A stretch of DNA of 64,000 bases from a virus. Under the pieces are notes generated by a model, which was not told where the DNA came from, searched no databases, and saw only the letters and a list, made by a program, of their open reading frames with translations. This document shows, piece by piece, positions 3,503-36,141 of this stretch (position 1 is its first letter; each line of letters opens with the position of its first letter). The stretch is from IMG/VR virus record IMGVR_UViG_3300044802_000046, positions 3,568-67,567 of that record, one strand, 5' to 3'. The position numbers and the translations under genes were made by a program.

Positions 3503-3913
3503 ATGAGTATTTATTCAAAACTTTATTGGCTAACTAGGCTAGATGGAATTCAAGGATTGTTTATTGCATTTGCCGTAATTGCTTTTGTCGCAGCCATAGC
3601 TATAGCTGTATATGCAATATGTAGTGCAGATTTTGATGAATTTCATGAAAAGGAAATTGAAAAACGAAAGGCGTCAAGAAAGTCGTTGCTTAAAAAAATA
3701 AATTGGATTATTCCTTTAGGGTTTACATTTACTATCATAAGTATTTTAATTCCAAATAAAAACGAAATGATATTCATTGTTGCCGGAGGTAAAACAATTG
3801 ATTGGGTTCAAAAGGATACTAGTATCTGTAAAATACCATCTCAAACAACTGCTATTATTTCTGATTTCTTAGATAAGCAAATTAAGAAGATGAACGAAAA
3901 ACCTGATAAATAA
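3503..3913 (+). CDS. two-TM membrane protein
   Basis: LYWLTRLD start and two hydrophobic segments. Confidence 0.7.
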   Translation: MSIYSKLYWLTRLDGIQGLFIAFAVIAFVAAIAIAVYAICSADFDEFHEKEIEKRKASRKSLLKKINWIIPLGFTFTIISILIPNKNEMIFIVAGGKTIDWVQKDTSICKIPSQTTAIISDFLDKQIKKMNEKPDK

Positions 3914-6739: not shown

Positions 6740-8143
6740 ATGAATATTATCTTCAAAAACAAAGGAATCCTCTCATTGTTGGACATAACAACAATGGGGG
6801 ACTCCATTAAAAGAGACGATCCGACAAAGATCGGAAAGTTTGACTCTGGGCTTAAGTACGCTCTCGCTGTTCTGTACCGAAACGGAATAGAAGTTAGTAT
6901 ATTAAGTGGCGATTCTGTATACGAATTCGATACAACTACTATTACGGCTGATGATTCAACCAAAAAAACAAAAGAATTATTAGTTGTAAATGAGTATAAA
7001 GTGAATTCAGAACCTTCTGAAAGTATATGTAAAAAATGTGCTGATATTTATTATAATGGATATGTTAATACAGGACCGCATAATCTATGCGAAGGAGCTC
7101 ACTGTTCAGATATGAATGACTCAGATGAAGATCCTATAATTCACGTAACAGCATTTAGCCCTCAGCTTGGGTATGAATGGAAGGTTTGGATGGCGATACG
7201 CGAATTATATAGCAATTGCCTTGACGAAGGCGGGGAGGTAGAGTTTGTCAATACCAATATTTCGCCCAATGCAATACCGGGTTCAACTATTATATTTATT
7301 CGTAATAAAACATCGCTTATTATTAATGAAATAATAGAAAATTGGAATAAATATTTTCTTAAAGATGAAACGCCTATTTACGAATACGACGATCTAAAGA
7401 TATTCGAAAATTCAGACCCCGATTCGCATTTAAGATTATATAAAAACAAGATTCTTATACACGAAAACAAAAGTGTTAAAAGTAGATTCGTATATGATTT
7501 CAAAAGAGCTTCTATTGATGAGATGAGACTTCTTAATGATTATAATTCATACGAAAGTCATATTGAAAAATGTATGTGCTATTGTAAGGACAAGGCTTTT
7601 ATTCAAAAATTAATAGAACGTCATGATGAAGATTTATTTGAATCTAAATTATCCTTCTACTGTTCATTGAGTGACGAATGGGTTAATGTTATTAATGACA
7701 CATACCCCTCCCTTACAGAAAAGGGTGAAGTATTTGTGACAAATTCGAATCTATTTACAAAACTCATGGAGGACCCACGAATAGATATTGGATTCAAGAA
7801 AGTGAAAGTTAATTCCCCCAGCTATTGTTGGGCAGATACTAAGGTTGAGATAATAAATCCAAGCTTAAGTGTAACTAAAGAAAAGACATTTGAAGAAGAA
7901 ATTTTGGGAATATGCAAAGCAAATAATTTTACTGTCACGTTCCCGGTTATCGAATCTAAAATAAGTGGACTTACCTGTGTGGCCGATGTTCATAAAAAAG
8001 TCATATATGTGTCTAAAAATTTCAAAGATTCGGATATGTGGGAGATGGTAAAGTCTCAATTTAGAATTGAATCAGATGACGATCCGGAATATTGTTTTAA
8101 GCAATACGCAAAACTTATTAATAATAAGTATAATGGACAATAA
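6740..8143 (+). CDS. GHKL/HATPase-like protein with permuted motif order
   Basis: IGKFDSGLKYA (G2-like) precedes AIRELYSNCLDEGG (N-box); ATG 6740 follows the upstream stop. Confidence 0.6.
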   Translation: MNIIFKNKGILSLLDITTMGDSIKRDDPTKIGKFDSGLKYALAVLYRNGIEVSILSGDSVYEFDTTTITADDSTKKTKELLVVNEYKVNSEPSESICKKCADIYYNGYVNTGPHNLCEGAHCSDMNDSDEDPIIHVTAFSPQLGYEWKVWMAIRELYSNCLDEGGEVEFVNTNISPNAIPGSTIIFIRNKTSLIINEIIENWNKYFLKDETPIYEYDDLKIFENSDPDSHLRLYKNKILIHENKSVKSRFVYDFKRASIDEMRLLNDYNSYESHIEKCMCYCKDKAFIQKLIERHDEDLFESKLSFYCSLSDEWVNVINDTYPSLTEKGEVFVTNSNLFTKLMEDPRIDIGFKKVKVNSPSYCWADTKVEIINPSLSVTKEKTFEEEILGICKANNFTVTFPVIESKISGLTCVADVHKKVIYVSKNFKDSDMWEMVKSQFRIESDDDPEYCFKQYAKLINNKYNGQ

Positions 8144-8309
8144 AAACAGTAATGAAAGGTCTGAATTGTCAAACATTGTCACAAAGACAATGTCGGAAAG
8201 TGAGCGTAAGGAATGGATATACAACCATGTAGATGATACAATTATTGGGTTGATTATATATTCAATGAATGATAGTGAGGTTGAAAATGAATTAAATAAA
8301 ATAAAATGA
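8133..8309 (+). CDS. small hypothetical protein
   Basis: ATG 8133 overlaps the upstream gene end; stop overlaps the next start (ATGA). Confidence 0.5.
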   Translation: MDNKNSNERSELSNIVTKTMSESERKEWIYNHVDDTIIGLIIYSMNDSEVENELNKIK

Positions 8310-8596
8310 ATAGTAATTTAAAGCACACGCCGGGGCCTTGGTTCGCAGTTGAGTATGCCGGAAGATATAGTTTTCAAAGAAAGGATGAATATGGGGGCCC
8401 GGACTTGCTTGACCAGGATTCATGCAGTAGGGCATGTTACAATGCAAAATTAGCTGCTGCTGCACCCGAACTTTTAAAAGAATTAATGTATCTCGTAAGA
8501 TTATTAGAACCTTTAGAAAGAGAAGGCTCTTTAGATGTTCCCGGTTTAGTAACATTAAATGGAGCTAGAAATGCAATAAAAAAAGCAATAGAATGA
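8306..8596 (+). CDS. conserved small phage protein (KHTPGPW...NAKLAAAAPELL family)
   Basis: Both signature motifs present. Confidence 0.85.
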   Translation: MNSNLKHTPGPWFAVEYAGRYSFQRKDEYGGPDLLDQDSCSRACYNAKLAAAAPELLKELMYLVRLLEPLEREGSLDVPGLVTLNGARNAIKKAIE

Positions 8597-9105
8597 AAAT
8601 ACAAACATGGGTTGACGTAAACGAATTTGGCAGAAAGGAAATACACGAAAGAGAAAAATTCCAAGATGCCATTTCGAATCTTAAATATGGCCGATACATA
8701 TACACTATTGAAAAGATTGAAAACATAAGAAGTCTCGACCAAAACAATGCAATGTGGGGCATTCCTTATGCATTTTTCAATAGGGTATTGAAAGAAACCG
8801 GCCATTTTGAGAATCCTTCCAAGGAGCAAACCCATGAATTTTGTATGTACTATTGCCTTCCTGATGATTACAAGGAAAGGCTTAAAAAGGAATGGGAAGC
8901 TATACCGTCTTTAAGGGATATAAGAACCGGTGAGCTATTTAAAACACCATTCCGGTTAACAACTAAGAAAATGAGTGTTGAAGATTCAATGCACTATTAC
9001 TCAAACATGCAGAAATTCTATGCCGAGAACTTTGCATCAGGCCGGGAAGAGGATTTTATTCCAGATCCTATCCCGGCTCTTTCTAAGAAAAATAAAACAA
9101 AGTAA
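8593..9105 (+). CDS. NinB-like recombination protein
   Basis: RSLDQNNAMWG and TTKKMSVED..Y motifs. Confidence 0.7.
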   Translation: MKIQTWVDVNEFGRKEIHEREKFQDAISNLKYGRYIYTIEKIENIRSLDQNNAMWGIPYAFFNRVLKETGHFENPSKEQTHEFCMYYCLPDDYKERLKKEWEAIPSLRDIRTGELFKTPFRLTTKKMSVEDSMHYYSNMQKFYAENFASGREEDFIPDPIPALSKKNKTK

Positions 9106-9112
9106 GATAAAA

Positions 9113-9243
9113 TTATAACGTTGGTAATAATAAATGTATGGGATTTAAAATCAGTAACCTATCTACATACGCCGAAATAAATTAAAGGTACAATTGCACA
9201 ATTTATCACTACCGCGCATATGTTTTTTTATTGTGTGTTAGCG
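9113..9243 (+). repeat. attC-like hairpin site E1
   Basis: TAAC (9116-9119)-GTTG-imperfect stem with G.T pairs...stem-GT-GTTAGCG (9237-9243); interior similar to E2. Confidence 0.7.
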
Positions 9244-9261
9244 GTTGTTATTCAATTTTTT

Positions 9262-9465
9262 ATGAAAACAAATAAATCAAGACTTGAAGTAGGAGATAAA
9301 GTAGAATTTCACAGCGGAAATTTTGAAGGTTTGACAGGGGAAATAATTCATACAGACTGGAATTCGAAGCGCGAAAAATCGATCTACGGAATAAGACATA
9401 CGGTTGAATTGTCAAATGGAGAAATTGGATATATAGAAAAAGCCGAACATTGGCACTTCATTTAA
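9262..9465 (+). CDS. cassette-1 ORF, small KOW/SH3-like protein (67 aa)
   Basis: LEVGDKVEFHSGNFEGLTGEII; ATG 9262 lies just after E1 and the stop abuts E2. Confidence 0.75.
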   Translation: MKTNKSRLEVGDKVEFHSGNFEGLTGEIIHTDWNSKREKSIYGIRHTVELSNGEIGYIEKAEHWHFI

Positions 9466-9469
9466 TAAT

Positions 9470-9598
9470 TATTAACGTTTATAATATCAAATGGCTGGGA
9501 TTCGGTGCTACTAACTTATCTCTCGCCACAAAACTAAAAGGTAGCAAGCTGGCTAATAAACCCACTGACACCCAGCTATTTTATATTATGTGTTAGCG
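9470..9598 (+). repeat. attC-like hairpin site E2
   Basis: TAAC (9473-9476)-GTTT-ATAATATCAAATGGCTGGG...CCCAGCTATTTTATATTAT-GT-GTTAGCG; 17/19 Watson-Crick stem. Confidence 0.8.
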
Positions 9599-9608
9599 GT
9601 AGTTATTT

Positions 9609-9992
9609 ATGGAACATTTAGAATTTTCTGAAAAATTAAATCAATTAGGCTGTTCATTTAGAAGCACGAATATTGAAAATAAAGTTAAAACTATTGAAAT
9701 ACCCAACACATTTGGAAAATCAGAATTTGTTGAGATTAAGAATTTTCAATGTGAATATGTTGGGCTTAACGCATTTTCAAGACCAACGCCACTTCAAGCT
9801 GTGATAAGCGAAGCAATAGATATTGATAGCTGGAAACATAGTTGGCACAATGAAATAAAACCAGAGAATTATGAAAAATTCAGAGAGATTATTCAGGAGA
9901 AAATGATTAAAAGAGCGGAAGAAATGGACTTTTTATCAACTGTCTATTTTCAATTGCAACATGAAATATCAAATCGGAGTGCGGATTTATAA
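9609..9992 (+). CDS. cassette-2 ORF, hypothetical protein (127 aa)
   Basis: ORF fills the space between E2 and E3. Confidence 0.75.
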   Translation: MEHLEFSEKLNQLGCSFRSTNIENKVKTIEIPNTFGKSEFVEIKNFQCEYVGLNAFSRPTPLQAVISEAIDIDSWKHSWHNEIKPENYEKFREIIQEKMIKRAEEMDFLSTVYFQLQHEISNRSADL

Positions 9993-9996
9993 TTAC

Positions 9997-10086
9997 CACT
10001 AACGATGGGCATAAGAAACGTGGCCTTGCAACCACTTTCAAAATGCCTACCAGCTTTCCGGCCATGTTTTTTATGCCGTGTTATGT
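9997..10086 (+). repeat. attC-like hairpin site E3
   Basis: CACTAAC-GATG-GGCATAAGAAACGTGGCC...GGCCATGTTTTTTATGCC-GT-GTTATGT; 16/18 Watson-Crick plus 2 G.T. Confidence 0.8.
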
Positions 10087-10148
10087 ACTGGCGCATTATC
10101 AGGCACATAGCACACAACGAAGCACGGTAATTTTATTATTTTTTTAGG

Positions 10149-10328
10149 GTGGGTTATTTTTCTTTAAAATTACTTGTCAGTATTGTACAAGATATATCCG
10201 CCATCCTTGGTTTAAAAACTTTAACCTCTTTTTCGAAAAGTGAAAAAATATCATATCCAGCTGCTGCAAAAAGAAAGACTGATAGATTAAAAATAGATAC
10301 TATTGAGTTTATAATTGACAATGAATAA
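10149..10328 (+). pseudogene. 59-aa HTH-like ORF, possibly 5'-truncated
   Basis: GTG-start frame ...LKTLTSFSKSEKISYPAAAKRK...EFIIDNE; stop 2 nt before the next ATG; no in-frame ATG. Confidence 0.45.
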
Positions 10329-10330
10329 TT

Positions 10331-10669
10331 ATGACAAAAATAAAAATGTTTCACATATCTAAAGAGCAAAAAATAATTGCCCTGAAAGAGGAGATGAGGA
10401 AAACCTTCATTACAATACCTGATGGACGAATTAGCCTACTTGACTTATGCGAAAAGGTTGGCATTAAAAACAGGATTACGTACTTCAACTTTATTGAGAA
10501 GAGAGTTGAAAGTAAAAGTAGAACAATTAACAATGACTATAAAGTAGTTAAAACCGTTCACGATCGTGGATTTGTATTTAACAATGGAATTGAAATTAGA
10601 AAGGTTGACAATAACATATTTAACCTATATCCGAGTATTGATATAATTGAAAGAAAAGAACGTAAATAA
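10331..10669 (+). CDS. hypothetical protein
   Basis: 112-aa ORF in operon. Confidence 0.65.
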   Translation: MTKIKMFHISKEQKIIALKEEMRKTFITIPDGRISLLDLCEKVGIKNRITYFNFIEKRVESKSRTINNDYKVVKTVHDRGFVFNNGIEIRKVDNNIFNLYPSIDIIERKERK

Positions 10670-10676
10670 TGAAACC

Positions 10677-10850
10677 ATGAGAAATTTAAAGCAAATTTTA
10701 CACAGACTTTATAGGGTTATAGGATTTTCATTGACCGTAACTTTTGGGACTATAATTATAATACCTGCGTGTGTAGGTTATTACATAATTACCGGGAAGG
10801 ATGTATTGCCAAGAGTGACTGCTCGCATATTTGACTTCTGGGGATTTTAA
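10677..10850 (+). CDS. small membrane protein
   Basis: Hydrophobic segment; ATG 10677. Confidence 0.6.
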   Translation: MRNLKQILHRLYRVIGFSLTVTFGTIIIIPACVGYYIITGKDVLPRVTARIFDFWGF

Positions 10851-10852
10851 TT

Positions 10853-11203
10853 ATGGCAAAAATAGCACAAGGCTGGCAATGTCCAGTATGTTTAACGGTC
10901 CATGCACCGTCAGTAACTCAATGTTCGTGCCAGGGAATCAGCCCTGGCACAACAACTAAAAAGACAAGGGAATTATTTACCCCTCCAGATATTCAAGATG
11001 TCTACTTTTATTGCAAGGAAAGAAAGAATGATGTAGATCCGGATAAGTGGTTCAACTTTTATACAGCTAAGAACTGGATGATCGGTAAAAATAAAATGAA
11101 AGACTGGAAGGCCGCAGTAAGAACTTGGGAAAAGAGTAGTAACTCTTCTGTAGGACAGGATACTAAAATAAGTATAAGATTGCCACAATTTAAAAAACTT
11201 TAG
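10853..11203 (+). CDS. Zn-ribbon plus replisome-organizer/helicase-loader C-terminal domain
   Basis: GWQCPVC..HAP....CSC then FTPP...V..YC.ER...FY....W.IGKNKMKDWKAAVRTWE; directly upstream of DnaB. Confidence 0.75.
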   Translation: MAKIAQGWQCPVCLTVHAPSVTQCSCQGISPGTTTKKTRELFTPPDIQDVYFYCKERKNDVDPDKWFNFYTAKNWMIGKNKMKDWKAAVRTWEKSSNSSVGQDTKISIRLPQFKKL

Positions 11204-11206
11204 AGT

Positions 11207-12658
11207 ATGGATATTAATTTGGGTAAAATACCACCTCAATGCATCGAAATAGAGGAATCTTTACTCGCTGACATTATTGCATTTTCGGATCTATTGGACG
11301 AGGCAGTAGATTTGAAGGTAGAATACTTCTATAAAGATGCGCATCAAAAAATATTCTCCGCTATTCTGGAGCTTAATTCTAGGAATCTCCCAATAGACCT
11401 TATGACAGTTTGTGATCAAATGAGTAAAACAAACACATTGGATGAAGTTGGGGGGAGATATTTCTTAACTCAGCTAATGAGTGTCGGAGCGGTATATCAC
11501 AATATTCCTTTTTTTGTCGCCCTTATTAAGGAAAAGGCTTTTAAGAGAGAGATGATTCGGGTTGGAATGGAGATTGTCAATAAGGCTTATGACGATTTGG
11601 TGGATGTTGAGGATTTAATGAGTGAATCGGTAAATATGGTCGATGCCGCTTCGAATATTGTATCTACTGAATCGGATAGAGATTTATCTTTCCCAAAATT
11701 ACTTAAGAAAGCATCTGATCAAGCCCAACAAAGGGAAATATTGCGTAAAAAAGGAGAGGTTCTTGGGATAAAAACCCCTCTTAAAAAACTAGATCAGTTT
11801 ACCGGAGGATGGAGAGGGGGTGATCTTATAACTATAGGGGCCCGGCCGTCTACTGGTAAAACAGCTCTGGCCGTAGCGATAGCAAAGGAGGATGCGAGGT
11901 GTGGTGGGCACCCCAATTTTTATTCTTTAGAAACTATTGACGTTAAAATAGCGGATAGGATATTTGCCGGAGAAGCCGATGTGAGCTATGATAATTACAC
12001 CATGGGCTTGCTAACTCCAGGAGAATGGGTAAAGCTTTCTAATGCCGAATATAATTTATCTAAAATGGATATAATAATCGACGACGGGTTTGTAGCCTCT
12101 ATAGATACTATAAAAAGTCGATCTAGGAAGCTTAAAAAACAAGGAAGGTGTACCATGATTATCATAGATTACTTACAGCTTGTCAAAGAAAATATTAAAG
12201 GAGGAAATCGAGAGCAGGAAATTTCAACCATAAGCAGGAAGTGCAAACAAATGGCTAAGGAATTAAATGTGCCTGTATTTATTTTGGCTCAATTAAACAG
12301 GAAGGTTGAAGACAGGCAAAGCAGAAGACCGCAGATGAGCGACATTAGAGAGTCAGGATCGGCCGAGCAAGACTCTGATTTAGTGATACTTCCGTATAGA
12401 CCGGCTCAATACGGAATCCTAGAAGACGAAAACGGAAACAGTACTGTGGGCAGAGGGATTTTAATCTTGGCTAAAAATAAAGAGGGTGATACCGGTGATA
12501 TAGATTTTGGTCACAATAAGTCTTTGACTCGAATATTCGATGTTGATGATGATCCTTTGCCTATAATAAGCAAAGAAAAAGCTCATCCGGACACAAACAC
12601 TGCTCCGGGATATTCAATAGAATCAAACAGGGATTTAGAATCAAACGAAGATTTTTAA
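11207..12658 (+). CDS. dnaB: replicative DNA helicase DnaB
   Basis: PPQ.IEIEE N-domain, Walker A GARPSTGKT, IIDYLQL, LAQLNR, SDIRESGSAEQDSD. Confidence 0.97.
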   Translation: MDINLGKIPPQCIEIEESLLADIIAFSDLLDEAVDLKVEYFYKDAHQKIFSAILELNSRNLPIDLMTVCDQMSKTNTLDEVGGRYFLTQLMSVGAVYHNIPFFVALIKEKAFKREMIRVGMEIVNKAYDDLVDVEDLMSESVNMVDAASNIVSTESDRDLSFPKLLKKASDQAQQREILRKKGEVLGIKTPLKKLDQFTGGWRGGDLITIGARPSTGKTALAVAIAKEDARCGGHPNFYSLETIDVKIADRIFAGEADVSYDNYTMGLLTPGEWVKLSNAEYNLSKMDIIIDDGFVASIDTIKSRSRKLKKQGRCTMIIIDYLQLVKENIKGGNREQEISTISRKCKQMAKELNVPVFILAQLNRKVEDRQSRRPQMSDIRESGSAEQDSDLVILPYRPAQYGILEDENGNSTVGRGILILAKNKEGDTGDIDFGHNKSLTRIFDVDDDPLPIISKEKAHPDTNTAPGYSIESNRDLESNEDF

Positions 12659-12660
12659 TT

Positions 12661-13269
12661 ATGGAAACTTTAACTATTGAAACCGTAAAAATAGAGGTGG
12701 CTAAATTTTTTAACCTTCCAGTCGAAAGACTATCGGAAGATACCCGAAAAAAAGAAATTGTAAAGCCGAGACAGATTGCTATGTTTTTATCTAGGGAATT
12801 GAAAATAGGGTCTGATGAGTTTATAGGAAGTAGTTTTAATAGAGATAGGACCTCGGTTGTTCATTCATGTAAAACAGTAGTTTCGGATTGTGCAACAAAT
12901 AAAAAGTATGCCCATGAATTTGAAGAAATAGATGAAAAATTAAAAGTACTATTTAATATCGAGAGATGGAGGCCGATTTATGGGTTCGAAGATTATTACG
13001 AAGCATCTAATTTTGGAAATATAAGGTCGGTAAACAGGGTTATAAATTTAAAAAATGGATTTAAACTTAAACGTAAAGGAAAAATAAGATCATGTTCTAA
13101 TGAAATATGTTTAAATTTTAAAGGTAAAATATTGAGAAGAAATTACTTAAGGTTAATAGCCTCTACCTGGATACCAAATCCTCACAATCTGAGATTTGCA
13201 ATAAAAAAAGACATTCATGGAAATAATCATATAGATAACATAGAATGGTCCGATCGTATGCGAAGTTAA
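12661..13269 (+). CDS. DnaA C-terminal (domain IV) fused to NUMOD4 and a degenerate HNH domain
   Basis: RKKEIVKPRQIAMFL...IG..FNRDRTSVVHS; then ERWRPIYGFEDYYEASNFGNIRS and NNHIDNIEW. Confidence 0.8.
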   Translation: METLTIETVKIEVAKFFNLPVERLSEDTRKKEIVKPRQIAMFLSRELKIGSDEFIGSSFNRDRTSVVHSCKTVVSDCATNKKYAHEFEEIDEKLKVLFNIERWRPIYGFEDYYEASNFGNIRSVNRVINLKNGFKLKRKGKIRSCSNEICLNFKGKILRRNYLRLIASTWIPNPHNLRFAIKKDIHGNNHIDNIEWSDRMRS

Positions 13270-18018: not shown

Positions 18019-21000
18019 TTATCTTGACTCTCTTATAGCTCTGCCTTTCTGGCGTCTTGACATCTTATCTTCCACTGTAAGTTTGCCATACAGTCTATTT
18101 AAATCCTGAGTTACTCTAAATCTACTTTTTGAATTATATGAATTTATAAACATATCTGCATTTTCATTGACTATTTTACCGTATTTATCATCCATTTTAT
18201 TTGAAGTAACATAATCTATGACTTTTTTAAGTTTATTAAATTCGGTTTTATTCTTTTCATAGAAGTTTACGCGGTCTTTTAAATCATTGTCCGAGATATA
18301 TTTCTTCATCTCTGCGGAGCCTTCTTTTTTGAATATATCATTTATCTTAGTCATATCACTTGACAACTTATTTATAGTGTTGACTGATTGGTACTCTTTA
18401 GGTATTTCTCCAGATGACCTTATGGTGGCCAAAGTACTTTCCGCTAATCTTGCGGCGGCAGTATTTATCTCTTTGACTACTTTTTGTCTTATATCTCTAT
18501 CCATTTTAACCTTTTCAAGTTCAGTAAGTTTACTTCTAAGTTCAGTTATCTCTTTAGCTGTTTTAGCTATCAAATATTTATACTTAAAAAGCTTCCTGTC
18601 TTGATCAGTTATGTTTCGAGGATTTATCTTATTCTTCTCTCCAAAACTCAATGTCTTTTCAACTGAAGACAATCTCTTATATTCATCGTAAAATTCCTGA
18701 ACACTTACGCCTCCAAGTCCAGTCGTACTTGACCTTGTAAATAACCTTCCTATGATTGGATAATCAGCTCTTTCTTTATATTGCTTTGGAAAAGCATTTA
18801 GAATATCAGTTGCTAGTCCTCCTGTATATCCGCTAAGTAAATGATCTATATTTAATGGCGCTACATTTAGCACTTCTCCTAGTTTAATGGCTAATTTGCT
18901 AGAATGAGATGTGTATTGTTGTGGGGGTAATAATCCTTCTTGACTCATAGATACGATAGGGCCATCTCTAAATATATCCCAATTGAAATATACTTCCATA
19001 GCTGGTTTTACAAGGGCGGGAAGAGCGGGAGGAGCTACTGCTCCAACAGATTCTTCAGCGGCCTTTTTGAAGTATGTAGGATCTTTTGTATATAATGAAT
19101 TGGCTATACCTTCTGGAATAGCTCCGAATAGGTACCCCCATTCGAAAGGCTTAGAAAGACGGACTATTTCATCTCCTATTTTAAAATTGAAGAATCCGTA
19201 CTTTTGCCAGTCTGGAAGATTTTTATACCAATCTTCATCTTTGTGCATATACCATAAAGCTAATGTAGGAGCTGTCATCCATGCCATAGCTCTGAATCCT
19301 GACCTTACCGGATGTTCATATATAGTACGCCCCATTCGGCTTAATCCCTGTATTGACGGGTTGAAAAATGGCACAATTTGATTTATAACCGCAGCGTAAG
19401 ATCCAGCACGTTTAAAGTTAACCGTAACTTCATTTGCTGCATTGGAAGCTTCGATCGCTGCATCTTCTTTCAACTTCTTAAGCTCGACTAAATCTCCGTC
19501 GGATTGCGCTTTATCAAATAGCAGTTCATATTTTTTCATTACAGATTCGAACTCTGCCATCCTAGTTCCGGCTTCAGTAAATGATAATATTTTTCTGAGC
19601 GCTTCTATCGGATGCTTTACAACGTTTAACGCTTTTCTCTGTACGTTGTCAGCTAAAATCTCTTCTACTGTATTTTTAAGCATCTTTCTATCGAGCCCTA
19701 ATGGCTGAGCCATCTCTCCGCCCGATCTTTTAAATGCTTGAGTATACTTCCCTTTACCGACCAGTTCTTCTATAATAGCTTTCCCAACATTGCCTACTCT
19801 GGAAGTGCCGGTATACTCATTCTGTAAAACAAAAGTTTGAAAATCTCGAATAGGGTTGGTTATTAAAGAAAATCCAGCTCTAATACCTGTAGCTCCAAGC
19901 CTAACTAGCCTGGAAGCTGACCCGAATGTACTGTCAATAAACCAAGGTAAGGTCACGTTATCCAATCCTTTCATAGAATCGTATAAATCCTTATGTAATT
20001 GATAAAATTCTCTTTTACCATCTTTATAAATAGAGACGATATTATCTTTTCCGTAATAATCTCCCTGAGAAAATAAATTTATAAGTGAACTTTTATCTAC
20101 TGATGACAGATCTCCTCCAAGCGACTCTATTTGCTTGGATATATCTTCCAGTTCAATTATTGTCTTTTTTAATGGCGCCGGAACCTTTTCAATCCACTTT
20201 CCGGCACCTGAATATTTATCGGCTAAATCAACGAGAGCACGAGAAACTCTTGCCTTGTCAGCAACGCTTATTATTTGCTCTGTCATGGCAATCATTGACT
20301 CAAGTGGATCTACAATTTCCCTTCCACTACCTTTTATTTTTTTTATGGGGCTTCCTAAGTCAACAAACCCTTTACCAGTTGCGGCAGATACTCCTTGATC
20401 AACAAAAGATCTTTTAAGTGGAATGTAGAAAGGATTGGACGCTCTCATTATATCTGCGGCCTCCCTTGATAGCCCTCCAGCATCCACTAAGTAATCCACT
20501 AAATGAGATGACCATTGAGTAAAATCTTGAGAGAATTGTTCGTATTCTGGCTTGGCATTGTTTTTTAATACATATTCTGCATCAACACGACTTATGCCAG
20601 GGTTTATGCCTCTATCTAATAATGTAATTGCATGTTTCGAATAAGCATATGCAATTGCATTTTTAATATCTTTTGAAACTGGAGTAACCACATCTTTTAA
20701 ACTCTCTCCGGTTTTATTTAATTGAAAATCGAACGAACCGTCCATTATGAATTGCCTGGCCTTGGCTGAAGCTGTTTTAGCTACACTCATGGCTATTTCA
20801 TAAGGATCTTCACTCGACCTTATTTTACCTTCACCAATTATTTTATTTACAACATATTTTAAAGGGTACAGTCTGTTTGTAAATCTTCCCCTAACTTTAA
20901 TATCAAAAGATCCTAATCTTTCCTTTAAGGATAAGTCGGATTTAAGGCCGTTAAAATCAACTTGACTCAATACTCTATTTAAAGAACCTTGTTCTCTCCA

Positions 21001-24000
21001 TTTTGTTATTGAACTAGTCGCTTCTGAAATTATTTTTTTTTCAGTAGGATTTTTTGATAAAATTTCCTTTTCAAAATAGTCATGAAATTTTGGTGCGACA
21101 TCTTGACTGTCCCCAATAGTGAGATAGTGCCGAATAAACTCCGCGAAACCCTCATTGACTCTTTTTTTAGATTGATCATAATCGAGACTCTTTAATTCAT
21201 TTTTAAGATCATTAGGAACCGAATTTGATATATCTAATTTCTTGTCTATGAAATGGGCAACTTCATGAGACGTAGTTGCTAAGTCATTGTATTCTTTTGT
21301 TCTAATGACTTCGGGATGAACTTTAAATATCCCTAACGCTTTCTTCCTTATTTTACCAATCCTTATTGGAACGCCAAGCTCTTTAGACAATTTACTTATA
21401 ATGGTCGAAGCTTTAATAGGTTCAGATTTTGGCTCTGTAGACACGGGAATAAAAGCCTTACTTTCCAAGCTTTGTTCGGTTTCTTTTATGGCTTTTTTAG
21501 TTGACTCTACTGATTGAATTTTATCCGGATTTACTTTATGGATAATACCATCCTCTGTTTTTACCTTATACCTACCATCGGATTCTTTTGACATTACTTC
21601 TCCAATACGATTATTTTTAATCATATCTTTAAAACCAATTTGCTCTCCAATTTTAGGCTCAATAACTTTAGATGGCGCTTTTTCTCCTCCTATCATTCGG
21701 TAAGATCCATCTGGCATCTTTTCAGCCTCCTTTGATTTAACCAAAGAGTCCCATAATCCCTTAGCTGAACCTGATATTTTATCAGGACGGTCGGATTTTA
21801 CAACTTTACCTTCCGATTGAGCCTGTTTGTTTAATTCACGATAAATTTGTTTCCCATATCCCTTACCCTTCTCATTTACCATTACGTATTTAACTTCCCA
21901 ACCTTCCGGCTTTTCTTCTATATGAACTTCTCCAAGTTCCTTTCCGTCTTTCTTGATTTCTCTTGAGAAAACATTTTTATCCCCGGTAGACAATATCTTT
22001 TTCATCGCCTCCGGAGTTTTTGTTTTCTCTCCAATTTCAACTTTTCCAGTTTTCGTACCGGCAGGTTCTGGCTCGGCCATTCCCTCCGGCACAAACTCTG
22101 GTATTTCCTCTATTTCTTCCGGGACCTTCTTTTCTCCTCCAGACTTACCGCTACCGCTTGCTTGTCCGCCTTCTCCTTCCCGAACTTTCTCTTTGTTGCC
22201 GCGTACGTCTTCCCTTTGTGGAATTCGCTTATGTTCTGGCTCACTACTTTCTGAGACTTTCCTTTTTTGAGTGGCATCTTCTATCCCTTTCTCAATTTTG
22301 GTTTCTTTTTCACCACTACCTGTCCCGATCCGCTCGGTGGCGCCGGAATTGTTTTTCCCTTGGGCTTCATTTGAGCCATACTCCCCTTGGAGATCCCTTT
22401 TTTTAACTTTTTCATTTTTTACTCCTTTTTTACTTACCAGCTTTTGCCCCTTGACTTCATTTTCGACTTTGGAGCCTTTTTGGGTGCCGGGACTTCCTTT
22501 CCCACTCTTGTTTTTGGTTTTGACAGGTTGTAAGTTCCCTTGCTCCCCGATACTCCCTTTTCCTTTTTCATACTCTTTACTTTTTAATTGTTCTTGTTTA
22601 TTTAATTCAAATATATCTAAAGGTTTAGACATTTCATTTTTAGCCTCGGCTGAAAGGCTTTTTTTACGACTCTCTAGCCCTTCTATTAATAAGGGCTTAT
22701 TTTCTTCTGGAATCGATGTATTTTCCTTCAGAGTTTGAATTTCCTTATCGACATTTGATATTTCATTTATTGAAGGCTCAGATGCTTTTATCCTAGGATC
22801 GTTTTTAGCGACAAATTGATTTACTTTTTCAGTGTAAAAATCCTTTTCAGGATCAGATAATTTAGGATCTTCTTTAATTCCTCTTATAAAGGTTTCAGGG
22901 TCGGATAATATTTGTTTCCCGATAGCTTTTACGTCAATATAACCATCCAAAGTCTGAGAAGATAATTCTAGCTCTTCTTTTTTCTTAGGATCTTTTTCAT
23001 TTTTTATCTGATCGTCTAGTTTTATCTGCTCTTCCCTGAGTTGCTCAACGGTCTTAGGTATGTCGTGAATCTTACTTACATCTTCAATAGATGAAGTGAA
23101 GAACTTATCAGATGCACTTTTCTGCTTAGATTCCAGATTTTCTTTAACAGATTTACCTAATAATAGATCCATGCCTAATCCTAAAACCCCACTGGCTACT
23201 ATTTCTTTAGGATTTAACTTTCCAGACATGTATTGTTCGGTCGCGGTCATTCCTCCGAATAATGTACCGCTAGAAAGAGAGGATGCTAATTTTGATGCAA
23301 AATTACTTCCGGTCACTCCTTTTATATACCCACCAGCTTCAGATGATAGGTAACCGAAAGAGTGCATTAATGATCCTTCGATAGCGCCCACCCCGGCAGC
23401 CTTCAATGTTTCTGTTAGTTTATTGGCTTCTGGATTTTCTTGGCTATCTAATTCTTGATATTTATTCAGAGCGTTTGTAGCAGCCATGTACGGAACTATC
23501 CCAGGAATAGACTTAACTAATCCGCCTGTAGCGGCTCCAATATAAGACAACTTAGTCTCTGGAGCTAATACCATTAACGGAAGATCTATTAAAGCACTCC
23601 CAGCTCCTTCCGCAACCATCCCAGCTATATTTCCCGGAGCTTTTGTTTTTGCATTTTTCAGACTCTCATCTATTTTATCGGCCATCTGACCAAAAGTGCC
23701 GGACATAGGGATCTTAGTTACATCACTTATGATTCTGGCCGCTCCATCCATAGTTCTTAATGTAGTTGCCGTGGCTTTATTTATACCATGAACAAATCCC
23801 CACATATAACTATCCTCAGGCTTAAAGGCGGACTGCTCATCATTTTTTTGCTTTAGAAATCTTTTAAAATCTACTTGGCTAAGTAATTCCTCCTGATCCT
23901 TTGGCTGTAATATCTTTTGTGGATTTTGGTTATGGTTCTCCTCTGGCGATATAGAAAATTCCTTATTAAACTCCTCAACGGATCGTGGTTTTTCATAAAC

Positions 24001-24417
24001 CTTCTGGCGTATCTTATCTTCTTTTTTATTGACTTGTATCAATGGTTTTTCAGAAAGAGTACTCAACACTGTCTCTTCCTGGTTATATTGTGGTTTTTGT
24101 TTTGGAGATCCTACAGTTCTAAAATCAGTACTTTGTGATTTCGATGTATTTTCCTGACCAACTAATCCTGATTGAGAATTTTCCTGAGAGATATCCGAAG
24201 ATACGCTTGAAGAGTCTTTTTTTTTTAAAGGTTTTGCTCCGGGGTATTCCTTTAAGAAACCATCAACCTCTTCTTTAGGGATATCAAAAGTATCTTTTCC
24301 GGAAACGTAACTCTCAACTTCCTGAGCCTTTGGATATGCCTTTAAGAAGCCGTCTGATTCAGATTCAGGGATATCAAAAACATCTTTACCGACTTTATAT
24401 GTCTTGGTATTAGGCAT
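18019..24417 (-). CDS. large ejection/polyvalent protein (GNAT-like, zincin MPTase-like and LPD38-like domains)
   Basis: KGKGYGKQIY (GNAT), SHEVAH...EGFAEF (zincin), YKNLPDWQK...KPFEWG...IDHLLSGYTGGL (LPD38-like). Confidence 0.75.
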   Translation of the reverse strand: MPNTKTYKVGKDVFDIPESESDGFLKAYPKAQEVESYVSGKDTFDIPKEEVDGFLKEYPGAKPLKKKDSSSVSSDISQENSQSGLVGQENTSKSQSTDFRTVGSPKQKPQYNQEETVLSTLSEKPLIQVNKKEDKIRQKVYEKPRSVEEFNKEFSISPEENHNQNPQKILQPKDQEELLSQVDFKRFLKQKNDEQSAFKPEDSYMWGFVHGINKATATTLRTMDGAARIISDVTKIPMSGTFGQMADKIDESLKNAKTKAPGNIAGMVAEGAGSALIDLPLMVLAPETKLSYIGAATGGLVKSIPGIVPYMAATNALNKYQELDSQENPEANKLTETLKAAGVGAIEGSLMHSFGYLSSEAGGYIKGVTGSNFASKLASSLSSGTLFGGMTATEQYMSGKLNPKEIVASGVLGLGMDLLLGKSVKENLESKQKSASDKFFTSSIEDVSKIHDIPKTVEQLREEQIKLDDQIKNEKDPKKKEELELSSQTLDGYIDVKAIGKQILSDPETFIRGIKEDPKLSDPEKDFYTEKVNQFVAKNDPRIKASEPSINEISNVDKEIQTLKENTSIPEENKPLLIEGLESRKKSLSAEAKNEMSKPLDIFELNKQEQLKSKEYEKGKGSIGEQGNLQPVKTKNKSGKGSPGTQKGSKVENEVKGQKLVSKKGVKNEKVKKRDLQGEYGSNEAQGKNNSGATERIGTGSGEKETKIEKGIEDATQKRKVSESSEPEHKRIPQREDVRGNKEKVREGEGGQASGSGKSGGEKKVPEEIEEIPEFVPEGMAEPEPAGTKTGKVEIGEKTKTPEAMKKILSTGDKNVFSREIKKDGKELGEVHIEEKPEGWEVKYVMVNEKGKGYGKQIYRELNKQAQSEGKVVKSDRPDKISGSAKGLWDSLVKSKEAEKMPDGSYRMIGGEKAPSKVIEPKIGEQIGFKDMIKNNRIGEVMSKESDGRYKVKTEDGIIHKVNPDKIQSVESTKKAIKETEQSLESKAFIPVSTEPKSEPIKASTIISKLSKELGVPIRIGKIRKKALGIFKVHPEVIRTKEYNDLATTSHEVAHFIDKKLDISNSVPNDLKNELKSLDYDQSKKRVNEGFAEFIRHYLTIGDSQDVAPKFHDYFEKEILSKNPTEKKIISEATSSITKWREQGSLNRVLSQVDFNGLKSDLSLKERLGSFDIKVRGRFTNRLYPLKYVVNKIIGEGKIRSSEDPYEIAMSVAKTASAKARQFIMDGSFDFQLNKTGESLKDVVTPVSKDIKNAIAYAYSKHAITLLDRGINPGISRVDAEYVLKNNAKPEYEQFSQDFTQWSSHLVDYLVDAGGLSREAADIMRASNPFYIPLKRSFVDQGVSAATGKGFVDLGSPIKKIKGSGREIVDPLESMIAMTEQIISVADKARVSRALVDLADKYSGAGKWIEKVPAPLKKTIIELEDISKQIESLGGDLSSVDKSSLINLFSQGDYYGKDNIVSIYKDGKREFYQLHKDLYDSMKGLDNVTLPWFIDSTFGSASRLVRLGATGIRAGFSLITNPIRDFQTFVLQNEYTGTSRVGNVGKAIIEELVGKGKYTQAFKRSGGEMAQPLGLDRKMLKNTVEEILADNVQRKALNVVKHPIEALRKILSFTEAGTRMAEFESVMKKYELLFDKAQSDGDLVELKKLKEDAAIEASNAANEVTVNFKRAGSYAAVINQIVPFFNPSIQGLSRMGRTIYEHPVRSGFRAMAWMTAPTLALWYMHKDEDWYKNLPDWQKYGFFNFKIGDEIVRLSKPFEWGYLFGAIPEGIANSLYTKDPTYFKKAAEESVGAVAPPALPALVKPAMEVYFNWDIFRDGPIVSMSQEGLLPPQQYTSHSSKLAIKLGEVLNVAPLNIDHLLSGYTGGLATDILNAFPKQYKERADYPIIGRLFTRSSTTGLGGVSVQEFYDEYKRLSSVEKTLSFGEKNKINPRNITDQDRKLFKYKYLIAKTAKEITELRSKLTELEKVKMDRDIRQKVVKEINTAAARLAESTLATIRSSGEIPKEYQSVNTINKLSSDMTKINDIFKKEGSAEMKKYISDNDLKDRVNFYEKNKTEFNKLKKVIDYVTSNKMDDKYGKIVNENADMFINSYNSKSRFRVTQDLNRLYGKLTVEDKMSRRQKGRAIRESR

Positions 24418-26491: not shown

Positions 26492-29400
26492 TTAGTATTT
26501 ATCACTAAGATCCCAGCCAACTTGAGATTCCAATACCCAAACTTCGGCATCTTCTAAATTTTCCATTTGATGCTTAATGTAAAAACCTCGAAGCTCATCA
26601 CCATTAAATAAATCTAGCACTGACGGTGTATTAGAAGTAGTCTTCATATTATTCAAATAGGCCGCGCTAAAACTGCCTTCCTTAAGCTCAAAATGATTTG
26701 TCTTAAGAAGACTGGACATGCCACGCGTATACGTAGCGTCAGATTCGATTATTATTAATGGGACATCCCACGCTTTATTAGACTTTATACCCAATACCTT
26801 AAATACCTTTTTAAGTATTGGATTAGCGTTACTATACCAATTAATCTGTTGTTTATATTTAGTTCCGTAAAAATTAGCCCGAACTACATTATTGGAATTA
26901 TGCTTATACCCCATTACTCCAGAAAAAGACAATAAAGTGGTGCCTAAAGAGGAATAATGATCTGGCATAAAAGAATAAAAACTTATCCATCTTGGTTTCG
27001 CCCCTTCAATATTTGGATCATAAAAACCAATTGTCTCGGAATTGACCCCCATGATAAATGTAAGTACATACATTTTATTCTCTTCGTCGTACGCTCCTCT
27101 TACGTCGGCATTAGCTATTCCAAAAGATGCGATTTGACTAGCCTTAGATCTAAAATAAGTACGCATTCCATATTCAGAAACAGGATATTGACCATTTGGA
27201 GATGTTCGGATAACTTCGCCTCTATAATAATCAAAATAATATATATCCCTATTGTGAACAACGACGGATCTTGGAAATATAGTCCCTCTGTCTTCGTCAT
27301 ACTTATTGGCTGTTCCGAGCAATGCTGTTGACTTAACAACATTTGATGTATTATCGGCATTCTGCATTTCAGTTCGACTTATGTAAATCGAAGTCTCCTT
27401 TCTATCCTGGAGAACCTTCATAACATTTCCGACTTCTTTCAAAATGTTTATCGATCCAAATTTGGATTTTAACGTTTCGAGATCTTCTGATTTGAATTGA
27501 TTTAATTTATTAACCTTGGTATTTTCAAGTAATGATCCAGAATTTCTCATACCCGAAATAAGCTCCTCTTCCTTCGCATCTGCATCAAATAGTCCAGGCA
27601 TTCCGAGTCCATAACTATTAGATTCGTAATAATCAGAATAATTATCATCTACGGATGGATATAGATATTTAGCAAACCTTTCTTTTAAATAAGAGTCTCC
27701 AGGATTGCACAATACGATAGCAGGGGAAGATACTGGAGATGCGGGATTTTGATTTTGAATATTCCCTATATGATAATTACTGGAAGTACCCGGATTCCCT
27801 ATAGAGCCAAAATATACCGGAAAATAATATGGATTCGAAGATTCTTTTTTGGGACTATACAACTCCATAACAAAGTCTGAAGTTATATTTCTATCCACGA
27901 CGGATAATGCAGGAACGTCGAGTCTAGTTATTTGAACTATAACAACTTGACTATATGGAGCACTGACTTTGTTTCCGCTTGAATCTGTTATATATGATGG
28001 TGTTGCGGCATAATCTTTTTCGTATTGACTATCTACTTCCGGATACTCGGTACCTTTAATTAAAAAATCATAATTAAATGAACTAATATCGCCACTATGT
28101 ATCTTGATCCTATCTCCATCTGTAAAAACATAATTATTTATTTTTAAGTTGGTATCAATTTCTCGACTATCGTTTATAAGTCTATTGACCTGTATTCTTA
28201 AATAATTGTCAATTTCATCAAAATACGCATATCCAGAAGCCACGGTACCTGCATACTCAGTAGCTCTAGCAAGTAATTTTACATAGCTATTTATAATTAT
28301 CCTCTTAGTGAATACTAAAGCATAAAAATATGCATATTCAGGAGGCTTATTCCTAATACTACATGTTAGATCGTAATAATAACTTTGACCATACATGCTT
28401 TCGACTGCAATAGGAGTACTGAATTTATTTACAGATGAATACCTTAAATCTTTATCGTAATATCGTATTCCGCCAAGATAATAGTCCTCATTTTTCATCG
28501 TCTTATAAGTACTATTCAGCCCAGAAGTATACCCAATCGGAATAGTTATAAAATATGGAATCGTAGAACTACTTGGACCTTGATCCACTTCCATACCTAC
28601 GGATATGTAATAATACGCAGGACTCGTATTGTGTTTAACACTAGGATCAGTCCAACCTAATCTATTTGTTATTGATTTCCTTATCCTGTATTTTATATTT
28701 AAAGCCAAAGCTTTCAATATAGACTGTTCGGTATCTCCAGGTTTTGATACATAGTACACTGTAATGTTAAATGCCTTAAATGTTAAATCTTCACTACCGT
28801 AATCTGTACTAGCTATATTTAATATTATGCCATAAAAAGTATTTATAGGATATGAGGGCCATCTAACCCTCCATCCATCTGAAGCTAAAGACACGATCAT
28901 GGAAGAGCTTTCAACAGTAAATGTGGCTAAATTCCTGTTTACAGTAGTCAATATATCTAACACCGTATGGTCAAACCCTTCGGTTATATCCCCGTAAATA
29001 ATCCTATCCTTTTCTATTAACTCCTGTGTTCCGGCTAATTTAGGAAGAAAATCATATGGTCTAGCTAAATCATCTTGATCTACATTTTGCTTTACCTTAT
29101 CGTCTAGGAATACATAGTTCATAAATTCAGTAAGGGAAAATGTGTAAGGGGCTGAGGGAACTGATTTCTTATATATACTTCCGTTATAAACACAAGCATA
29201 AATACTTCCATTAGAAGCAACCGCCATTCCTTCCCATAGTCTAGTGGCTTGGCCTTGATCTATAAAATTTCCGGTACCGGCAAACTGGATGTAAATACCG
29301 CTGCCTTCAACACATGCATATATGTTTCCGAACGAGTCGCATGTCATGCCCTCCCAATTACGAGCGCTTTGCCCTAAGGCTATAAAATTACCAGATCCAG

Positions 29401-35782: not shown

Positions 35783-36141
35783 TAAGCTATTTCATTTACA
35801 AATCCAATTATACTAATGACATTTGTAGTTGCTGCAAAAGCTTTTATTGTAAGAGCAGTTGCATTCCCCTGAATAATTAGACCTGGAGATATTAATGATA
35901 GTCCGGCCTTGGAGGATATAGATGTAATTATATTATGATCTGGAGCTGTAGCGTCTCCAAATTCAATTGTCAATATAACATCAGCCGTATGATTATTCTG
36001 AGCCCATAACCATATTTCTTGCAAAGTTGTTGTACTGGTAGGGCCAGTGTGAATTACAGTTCCAGGGGTCGCCGTAGCTACAACTTTTACCCCTTTACCA
36101 TCCGTAGATCCACTTAATATTTTTTTTGTGTACGTAGCCAT
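35782..36141 (-). CDS. small tail-fibre-associated beta protein
   Basis: LSGSTDGK.VKV.ATAT.GT.IHT...EIWLWA; coupled to the fibre gene. Confidence 0.7.
   Translation of the reverse strand: MATYTKKILSGSTDGKGVKVVATATPGTVIHTGPTSTTTLQEIWLWAQNNHTADVILTIEFGDATAPDHNIITSISSKAGLSLISPGLIIQGNATALTIKAFAATTNVISIIGFVNEIA

Follow-up and report, generated by a model that had tools for sequence, protein, structure and literature searches.

A 64,000-nucleotide (nt) stretch of viral DNA, positions 3,568 to 67,567 of IMG/VR record IMGVR_UViG_3300044802_000046 and referred to here as the window, carries three hairpin elements, E1, E2, and E3, that alternate with single small genes. We propose that E1–E3 are folded-DNA recombination sites that act like the attC sites of integrons, as part of a gene-cassette system carried by phages, and we put the probability of this reading at about 0.75. 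A first-pass annotation of the window had already suggested an integron-like cassette system in a Bacteroidota-type phage, with a noncanonical geometry that might point to a different recombinase. The suggestion is upheld by the turnover of cassettes in a related contig, by a rule of complementarity between the two ends of each cassette, and by terminase matches to phages of Flavobacteriia, and the enzyme that accompanies such arrays in other loci is Xer-like and not of the IntI type. Recombination itself is inferred from these sequence comparisons.

E1 (9116–9240, 125 nt), E2 (9473–9595, 123 nt), and E3 (10000–10083, 84 nt), all on the plus strand, have the positions and lengths first reported for them and share one layout: TAAC, G, 3–4 nt, a long stem, an interior, the return stem, 1–2 nt, and GTTA. 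The 3′ motif TTTTWTNNNGTGTTA taken alone does not rise above chance in the window (4 matches against 2.45 expected, not significant), and a covariance model, R2, was therefore trained on 60 long-class elements taken from other phage contigs; neither the window nor one element closely resembling E2 entered this set. Run over the entire 64-kb window on both strands with filters off, R2 recovers E1 (63.5 bits, E = 6.5e-11), E2 (61.9 bits, E = 1.4e-10), and E3 (35.1 bits, E = 5e-5) and nothing else at E < 0.8, the fourth-best match scoring 14.7 bits (E = 0.87); the common architecture claimed for the three elements is thus confirmed. A short-class model, R1, finds E3 alone (59 bits), a match that is not independent because the training set of R1 contains E3. 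Compared with 200 shuffles, the hairpin folds of E2 and E3 have z-scores of −2.82 and −3.58. The z-score of E1 is 0.08, and its hairpin is absent from the minimum-energy fold because only 13 of 16 ungapped pairs, counting G:T, survive in its decayed stem. The long stems first ascribed to all three elements therefore hold for E2 and E3 and not for E1. E1 and E2 are alike at both ends, as had been noticed (30 nt at 80% and 29 nt at 90%), and are paralogues, E1 a long-class site with a decayed stem and E2 an intact one that forms the 5′ part of the second cassette; E3 is an intact site of the short class. Copies of E2 at 86–93% identity occur in four other loci (L004, L006, L007, and L131), and an element at L003 6006–6090 retains the loop motif of E3 with a different stem sequence.

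The three elements are members of a large family. When viral contigs were scanned with a sequence pattern and the matches passed through a hairpin filter, co-oriented arrays built like E1–E3 emerged from unrelated contigs 12 to 191 kb long; of 80 loci among those matching the pattern TAACGNTN{4,6}ATATGAAA, 10 held an element, the remainder being noise. At least 277 distinct elements were collected over all loci, in length classes of about 48, 79, 87–90, and 123–128 nt, and these counts include near-duplicate loci (L150–152, L145/146, L143/144, and L181/182). A hairpin scan of 80 loci that carry a recombinase gene described below (1.02 Mb) found 285 elements (283 on the strand of the recombinase gene, 2 on the opposite one), compared with 3 matches in block-shuffled copies of the same 1.02 Mb. 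Among 48 nonredundant short-class elements, compensatory double changes were found at 16 of 17 stem pairs, and 93.1% of the alignment cells were paired, compared with 59.4% after shuffling (0 of 500 shuffles attained the 93.1%) and 33–57% with slid partner columns; the percentage paired is partly circular because the elements had been chosen by a pairing criterion, and the block-shuffled DNA provides the independent control.

The strand that would fold appears to be marked as well. One stem position of the short class is G:U in 25 of the 48 elements, and when elements were redetected by Watson–Crick pairing only (78 candidates), the leftover stem pairs were nearly all G:T when read on the gene-sense strand, A:C being almost absent; where the array lies on the minus strand of its locus, these same pairs appear as A:C. 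No fixed bulged bases were seen in the stems, either in the short-class alignment or in the Watson–Crick redetection. The absence of obvious extrahelical bases had been remarked on from E1–E3; this stands, with the correction that fixed coding-strand G:T wobbles take their place. A sense open reading frame (ORF) spans at least half of the cassette in 182 of 235 cases and an antisense ORF in 6 of 235.

The first bases of an integron cassette are complementary to the R″ box of that same cassette. The phage family follows a corresponding rule. In 228 unique cassettes, pairing between the 12 nt that follow GTT and the 12 nt that precede the cassette's own AAC extends on average to 9.96 of 12 positions, compared with 6.64 of 12 for the start of the next cassette, and pairing at 10 or more positions was found with the own end in 150 cassettes and with the neighbor's in 15 (Wilcoxon p = 3.6e-28). 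Pairing with the own end is at background past position 12, and position 8 is a G:T pair in 172 of the 228 cassettes. A first set of 45 cassettes obeyed the rule likewise, permuted pairings averaging 6.59 with a maximum of 7.42 in 2000 permutations. The 6-nt middle of the R-box varies between cassettes; the pairing of the ends is therefore maintained by covariation across a distance of a few hundred bases. In the window, the R′ box of cassette 2 (9592–9606, plus strand; GTT plus the following 12 nt) pairs at 11 of 12 positions with 9989–10000 and at 3 of 12 with the start of the next cassette, with G:T at position 8 as in the family.

The extent of the unit that moves was read from pairs of elements that lie at different loci and have hairpin identities of 85% or more. 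Both flanks are common to 42 such pairs, and the downstream flank alone is common to a further 31 (10 independent groups). Alignments between loci start at TAACG and end directly after the next TAAC, and in two cases the sequence beyond holds no hairpin. Taken together, the downstream linkage and the TAAC borders indicate that the mobile unit is a hairpin with the gene downstream of it and that the exchange point lies in or beside TAAC. This is the reverse of what the first-pass annotation had taken from the integron model, in which the core is G|TTRRRY (PMC9892861): breakpoints had been expected at G|TT, and they lie at TAAC, 5′ of the hairpin; the site had been expected to follow its cassette gene, and the hairpin travels with the downstream gene (10 groups versus 2). 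In the window, the right-hand border of the unit is the R″ box of cassette 2 (9989–10003, plus strand), which ends in the TAAC core. Alignment of the window unit to L004 by blastn covers exactly 9473–10003 at 87.8% identity, with divergence beyond the TAAC, and a contig of run X22 matches 9481–10004 at about 88% with different neighbors on both sides. Separately, L007 1490–1634 and L131 5890–6028 resemble window 9473–9617 at 86–92% over an E2-type hairpin and the approximately 20 nt after it, the R′ "barcode," and are followed by a different gene; one chassis of hairpin and ends thus serves different genes.

Turnover can be followed in a single relative contig, G001 (loci L003, L009, and L134), which is 80–86% identical to the window on either side of a variable slot. 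Homology over window 8000–9105 (85.8%) ends at the ninB stop codon and reappears with E3 and a conserved segment, about 60 nt long, after it. Between these points the window holds E1, a gene for a 67-residue protein, E2, a gene for a 127-residue protein, and E3, whereas G001 holds six elements and five genes unrelated to those of the window, among them an N6/N4 DNA methylase (PF01555, E = 7.7e-50) and a 266-residue protein with an NPPY motif read by eye. A comparison of the ninB–dnaB interval across relatives had been suggested at the outset; it reveals gain or loss of cassettes in G001 and a gene order that is not identical. The window and its 86%-identical relative form a natural before-and-after pair, with one slot and different cassettes.

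Arrays in other loci are accompanied by a tyrosine recombinase. In contig G003, the gene for a 268-residue enzyme with PF00589 and PF13495 domains starts 320 nt after the last element of the array, with one small ORF between. The protein scores best against the archaeal XerA model (184 bits; cut-off 220) and reaches 151 bits against the integron-integrase model TIGR02249 (cut-off 265). Its best solved relative is an XerC-like (archaeal XerA-type) protein, aligned over the full length (E = 1.4e-37), whereas IntI4 aligns over residues 21–180 only. Around its homologues at 80 loci in viral contigs, 279 elements lie in 436.5 kb of upstream DNA (0.64 per kb) and 3 in 527.8 kb of downstream DNA (0.006 per kb). 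Where at least 2.5 kb of upstream DNA is available and identity is at least 48%, an element lies within 2 kb upstream of the recombinase in 49 of 52 loci (median gap 659 nt; the exceptions are L190, L196, and L209), an association to be read with the caveat that the recombinase query was itself discovered beside an array. Homologue loci free of elements mostly lack upstream DNA or have identities of at most 39%. In array G010, which was found independently, the recombinase is again downstream and co-oriented. The co-occurring tyrosine recombinase that the first-pass annotation had thought worth seeking is thus missing from the window's genome and present directly downstream of arrays elsewhere.

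In most of 36 loci inspected, a conserved TAAC|TAnnATATATA occurs a few tens of bases before the start codon of the recombinase, and we regard it as a candidate attI-like site, the nonhairpin end of the array. The window array has neither a Xer-like recombinase nor TAAC|TAnnATATATA at its 3′ end and runs into a deletion junction. Judging from the contigs compared, arrays lacking the enzyme are common, and that of the window is one of them: short, partly decayed, and either a fossil or dependent on an enzyme supplied in trans, perhaps by a phage infecting the same cell. The closest homologues of the recombinase in prokaryote genomes are 38–48% identical and come mostly from Bacteroidota bins; of 80 prokaryote-genome loci, L219 alone has two or more elements and L236 has just one, so that the carriers of the system in these data appear to be phages. 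The two elements of L219, at 6716 and 7135, lie upstream of a 46%-identity homologue on a 49-kb contig binned as a Bacillota metagenome-assembled genome, which may be a misbinned phage.

These observations can be assembled into a working scheme. On the coding strand, each site consists of TAAC, an unpaired spacer of 4–5 nt from the G onward, a stem of 17–19 bp in which one to three pairs are G:T, a loop whose length falls into one of four classes, a spacer of 1–2 nt, and GTTA. The mobile unit is a hairpin and its downstream gene, ending in 12 nt and a TAAC that are complementary to the GTTA and the 12 nt after its own hairpin. Because these ends are matched, a circularized cassette or a folded single strand would stack a 15-bp R-box on the hairpin; cassette circles presumably exist, and DNA rather than RNA is presumably the acting form. 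The Xer-like tyrosine recombinase, which we take to be the enzyme, would cut the folded coding strand in or next to TAAC and would exchange cassettes between hairpin sites and the TAAC|TAnnATATATA just upstream of its own gene.

Several observations weigh against such a scheme. No recombination event was observed in reads in the form of assembled contigs; the contigs of four runs contain no joints, and assembled contigs are silent on excision. In the linkage count, the upstream flank alone is common to 2 pairs (2 groups), and 1213 pairs share neither flank despite near-identical hairpins, and therefore hairpins must also spread or be homogenized in ways that go beyond a simple cassette model. 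No integrase had been seen near the elements, and in the window's approximately 95%-complete genome no match to PF00589, the tyrosine recombinase domain, was found. Array records found without the recombinase query carry the enzyme in 2 of 11 cases (G003 and G010) and in 0 of the 3 that are at least 90% complete. Within the window, the ends of cassette 1 pair at 10 of 12 positions, of which 4 are G:T, leaving 6 of 12 Watson–Crick pairs, and the junction at about 10172, which lies inside an ORF and has no TAAC, is an ordinary deletion that truncated the third cassette and not a site-specific event. Finally, restriction of G:U pairs to the sense strand would also be expected of a transcribed RNA structure.

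This last point leads to the possibility that the hairpins have an RNA role, alone or besides a DNA role. On a purely RNA-based reading, the hairpins would direct the processing, stability, or termination of a polycistronic mRNA, the complementarity of the cassette ends would form a long-range RNA stem, and the turnover would be ordinary mosaicism. The wobble pairs, all G:U on the sense strand, and the intergenic position of the elements in the orientation of the genes fit this picture, as does a contig spanning E2 and its gene from a run recorded as a metatranscriptome, in which DNA in the library is possible. An Rfam search of 8000–11500 in E-value mode, however, returned three chance-level matches at E ≤ 10 and no family at the cut-off, and a terminator scan called no terminator at E1–E3 on the plus strand. 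Nor does an RNA function alone account for homology between phages that breaks exactly at TAAC, for a tyrosine recombinase gene and a nonhairpin TAAC site at the 3′ end of arrays, or for one unit with different neighbors, and we consider it an unlikely explanation. A more doubtful one is modeled on T4-type phages, in which repeated intergenic stem-loops (promoter early stem-loops, PeSLs) of hyperplastic regions are associated with small-gene swaps and mini-circles (Arbiol et al. 2010, PMC2839356; Comeau et al. 2014, PMC4122927). Here, repeated stem-loops with promoters would be hot spots of homologous recombination and no dedicated enzyme would be needed; PeSLs are described as shuffling genes and yielding mini-circles (PMC2839356), the 1213 pairs of similar hairpins with unrelated flanks are possible substrates for homologous exchange, and the recombinase is missing from most array-bearing genomes. 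The breakpoints, however, fall at a 4-nt core outside the repeated hairpin and not within it, complementarity of own ends with cassette-specific barcodes would serve no purpose in a PeSL, and arrays and recombinase stand in a tightly fixed arrangement. Sigma-70-like promoters show no excess (12 found versus 11.5 expected, in a scan that does not cover Bacteroidota-type promoters), and no terminator was called. A PeSL is a promoter–terminator unit exchanged by homologous recombination, in contrast to a family with a 4-nt core, matched cassette ends, and an associated tyrosine recombinase; among systems that do without a dedicated enzyme, PeSLs are the nearest functional counterpart.

Two further explanations have little to recommend them. 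Canonical integron attC sites, forming a true CALIN (cluster of attC sites lacking an integron-integrase) recombined by a bacterial IntI, would agree with the AAC and GTT cores, with imperfect palindromes of 84–125 nt (the attC range being 57–141), and with the own-end rule, and HattCI predicted one member of the family as an attC (PMC9892861). Three sites within 1 kb of a 95%-complete record without a tyrosine recombinase would likewise make the window array a CALIN if the sites counted as attC; strictly, they do not. It is the coding strand that appears to fold, with G:T wobbles instead of extrahelical bases, the border is on the 5′ side of the hairpin, the associated recombinase falls well below the integron-integrase cut-off and aligns with IntI4 over only part of its length, and verified IntI1 recombinants are not reported for that predicted member, P12002L_attC1, in the main text and Table S3 of the same paper. 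We hold this explanation to be very improbable. Nonautonomous transposable hairpins inserted between genes, such as miniature inverted-repeat transposable elements, repetitive extragenic palindromes, or relatives of IS200/IS605, are scarcely credible: a fixed adjoining tetranucleotide and a strict strand bias do recall single-strand transposons such as IS608, but the elements move with a downstream gene and a matched end rather than alone, the enzyme associated with the arrays is a tyrosine recombinase, and no match to PF01797, the Y1 (HUH) transposase family, was found in the window's genome. A system of folded-DNA cassette sites remains the reading that we favor.

Integrons are the textbook machine for gene capture and are regarded as bacterial, IntI-dependent, and reliant on folding of the bottom strand. 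The phage family resembles them in its arrays of co-oriented, mostly single-gene cassettes; in imperfect palindromes with AAC…GTT cores whose structure, and not sequence, is kept and of which one strand is marked for folding; in the complementarity of each cassette start to the R″ box before its own hairpin; and in a nonhairpin primary site that adjoins the recombinase gene. Along the folded strand, the order of cassettes, attI-like site, and recombinase gene would be that of an integron, with only the direction of the cassette genes reversed. The family differs in that its recombinase is Xer-like and under the integron-integrase cut-off, and in that the folded strand is the coding strand, and therefore the genes lie 3′ of their own hairpins and are transcribed toward the recombinase gene. 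It further differs in having G:T wobbles in place of extrahelical bases, an R-box of 15 rather than 7 bp, and asymmetric spacers of 4–5 nt and 1–2 nt, and in being carried by phages, often without the recombinase. The system would thus work like an integron and yet fail three tests that define one: the IntI enzyme, the folding strand, and the side of the crossover. A Xer-type enzyme acting on a hairpin of single-stranded phage DNA has a precedent in the CTX phage, in which host XerCD integrates the whole phage genome at the chromosomal dif site via a hairpin of one strand. Here, in contrast, the recombinase is phage-encoded, and its substrates would be many cassettes inside the phage genome.

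A literature search yielded no description of the TAAC–hairpin–GTTA family, and only one member site was found in print, filed as a predicted attC. Qi et al. (2023) reported attC clusters without an integrase in phages, including the virulent Polaribacter phage P12002L with methyltransferase cargo (PMC9892861). According to that paper, attC2 alone of the P12002L sites was active with IntI1, junctions were verified "with the exception of P12002L_attC1," and, in its main text and Table S3, attC1 is the only one of six phage sites without reported IntI1 activity or a verified junction. The sequence of P12002L_attC1 in the primer table carries the loop motif TCGTTTTAATG of the 46-nt class of the present family. 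This motif occurs twice between the methyltransferase genes of P12002L, compared with 0.09 expected, and a hairpin scan of the phage found three more family-like elements. The P12002L cluster resembles the window array as an integrase-less, attC-like cluster in a phage of a Flavobacteriia host, with DNA methyltransferase cargo; it differs in that Qi et al. treat the sites as ordinary IntI attC sites, tested with IntI1, and in that no 46-nt mini-element was found in the window. The strings Xer, Bacteroid-, and Flavobacteri- are absent from the main text of that paper, and no account of the family, of the complementarity of own ends, of a bias to the coding strand, or of a Xer-like partner was found there. 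In our data, the 46-nt mini class, in which the loop TCGTTTTAATG is nearly invariant, was seen at L129 2875–2921, 13537–13583, 15515–15561, 16310–16356, 19124–19170, and 19459–19505, and in L215, which is phage P12002L, the loop was seen at about 30026 and 30926.

The cargo of the window array consists of single small co-oriented ORFs between the elements, as first described. The cassette-1 gene (9262–9465, plus strand) encodes 67 residues, or 81 from an ATG at 9220 inside E1; the 67-residue protein has a weak PHROG match to a transcription antiterminator (E = 0.0081) and no Pfam family. Some long-class elements of other loci (L129 17379–17515, 18744–18871, and 4248–4371) likewise have an ATG in the loop, with an ORF that apparently starts in the hairpin and reads through its 3′ arm. 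The cassette-2 gene (9609–9992, plus strand) encodes 127 residues and belongs to a widespread protein family, with matches to 168 protein clusters at E ≤ 0.001 that are 59–94% identical among the 120 matches listed. No Pfam or PHROG function was found for it, and its AlphaFold model (mean predicted local distance difference test score 79.8) has no PDB fold match at E ≤ 0.001.

Cassette 3 starts at 10084 and is preserved to 10177 (plus strand), a region that includes the conserved segment and ends at the deletion junction (approximately 10172–10177). Window 9992–10177 corresponds to L003 8710–8895 at 76% identity, after which the window sequence continues at L009 9146, a point internal to an ORF there. 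The homologous ORF of L009 begins at about 9076, and since the alignment with the window runs only from 9146 on, the N-terminal part has been deleted from the window's truncated ORF (10149–10328, plus strand; 59 residues, GTG start). In all, 1.8 kb past E3, which in the relative holds further cassettes, has been lost from the window, and a search downstream for an R″ box matching the sequence that follows E3 was negative. The conserved segment itself (window 10118–10175, L003 8838–8895) is near-identical over about 60 nt with different DNA on either side and contains a T-run followed by GGGTGGGTTA; it resembles the 3′ end of a stemless element and may be a promoter or a relic site.

The array sits in the replication module of a 67.6-kb virus record estimated to be 95% complete, of which the window is a part. 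The order on the plus strand is an exonuclease-like gene, a gene for 497 residues, the NinB/Orf-like gene (8593–9105; phrog_72, E = 7.9e-6) that forms the conserved left flank of the variable slot, the small ORFs, a DnaB-like helicase gene (11207–12658, plus strand), and, directly after it, an HNH endonuclease gene (12661–13269). Two other differences from G001 were seen in this region: window 10671–10851 (181 nt, most of a 67-residue ORF at 10647–10850) is absent from the relative, where its flanks are contiguous at L009 9644, and about 1.1 kb is extra in the DnaB-like gene region of the relative (L009 11145–12265, against window 12357–12364), which could be an intein, an intron, or a homing endonuclease gene. 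On the minus strand are three very large ORFs (18019–24417, 2132 residues; 36141–42359, 2072 residues; and 26492–30928, 1478 residues), adjoined by genes for a 768-residue terminase and an 801-residue portal protein, a gene set that we take to be reminiscent of crAss-like phages. The terminase matches 87 records at 25–27% identity, 86 of which are phages of Flavobacterium, Cellulophaga, Tenacibaculum, or Maribacter and 1 of which is uncultured; these matches are compatible with a Bacteroidota host and are no proof of one. A tblastn search with DnaB gave no indication of the host, blastn of 8000–12000 against isolated phages gave zero matches, and single-protein locus searches with NinB and DnaB reached one relative contig and no more. 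The whole stretch occurs in only one sequencing run, probably the one from which it came, and 23 others contain about 5% of the sampled words.

We lean, with only slightly better than even confidence, toward a broader picture in which Bacteroidota-type phages run an integron of their own, in which the coding strand would fold and a small Xer-like recombinase without the IntI insertion would act on it. Arrays that lack the enzyme would be serviced in trans at co-infection, and DNA methylases together with hundreds of uncharacterized small genes would make up a shared, rapidly exchanged pool in unrelated lineages ranging from 40-kb podoviruses to jumbo phages. A bench test of the idea is within reach, since members of the family occur in Polaribacter phage P12002L, which has been isolated. 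If it is true, cassette capture by folded strands evolved or was adapted more than once, and part of the hyperplastic "ORFan" regions in many uncultured phages would be explained. It would also provide a handle on the accessory and anti-defense genes of phages, methyltransferases being recurrent cargo.

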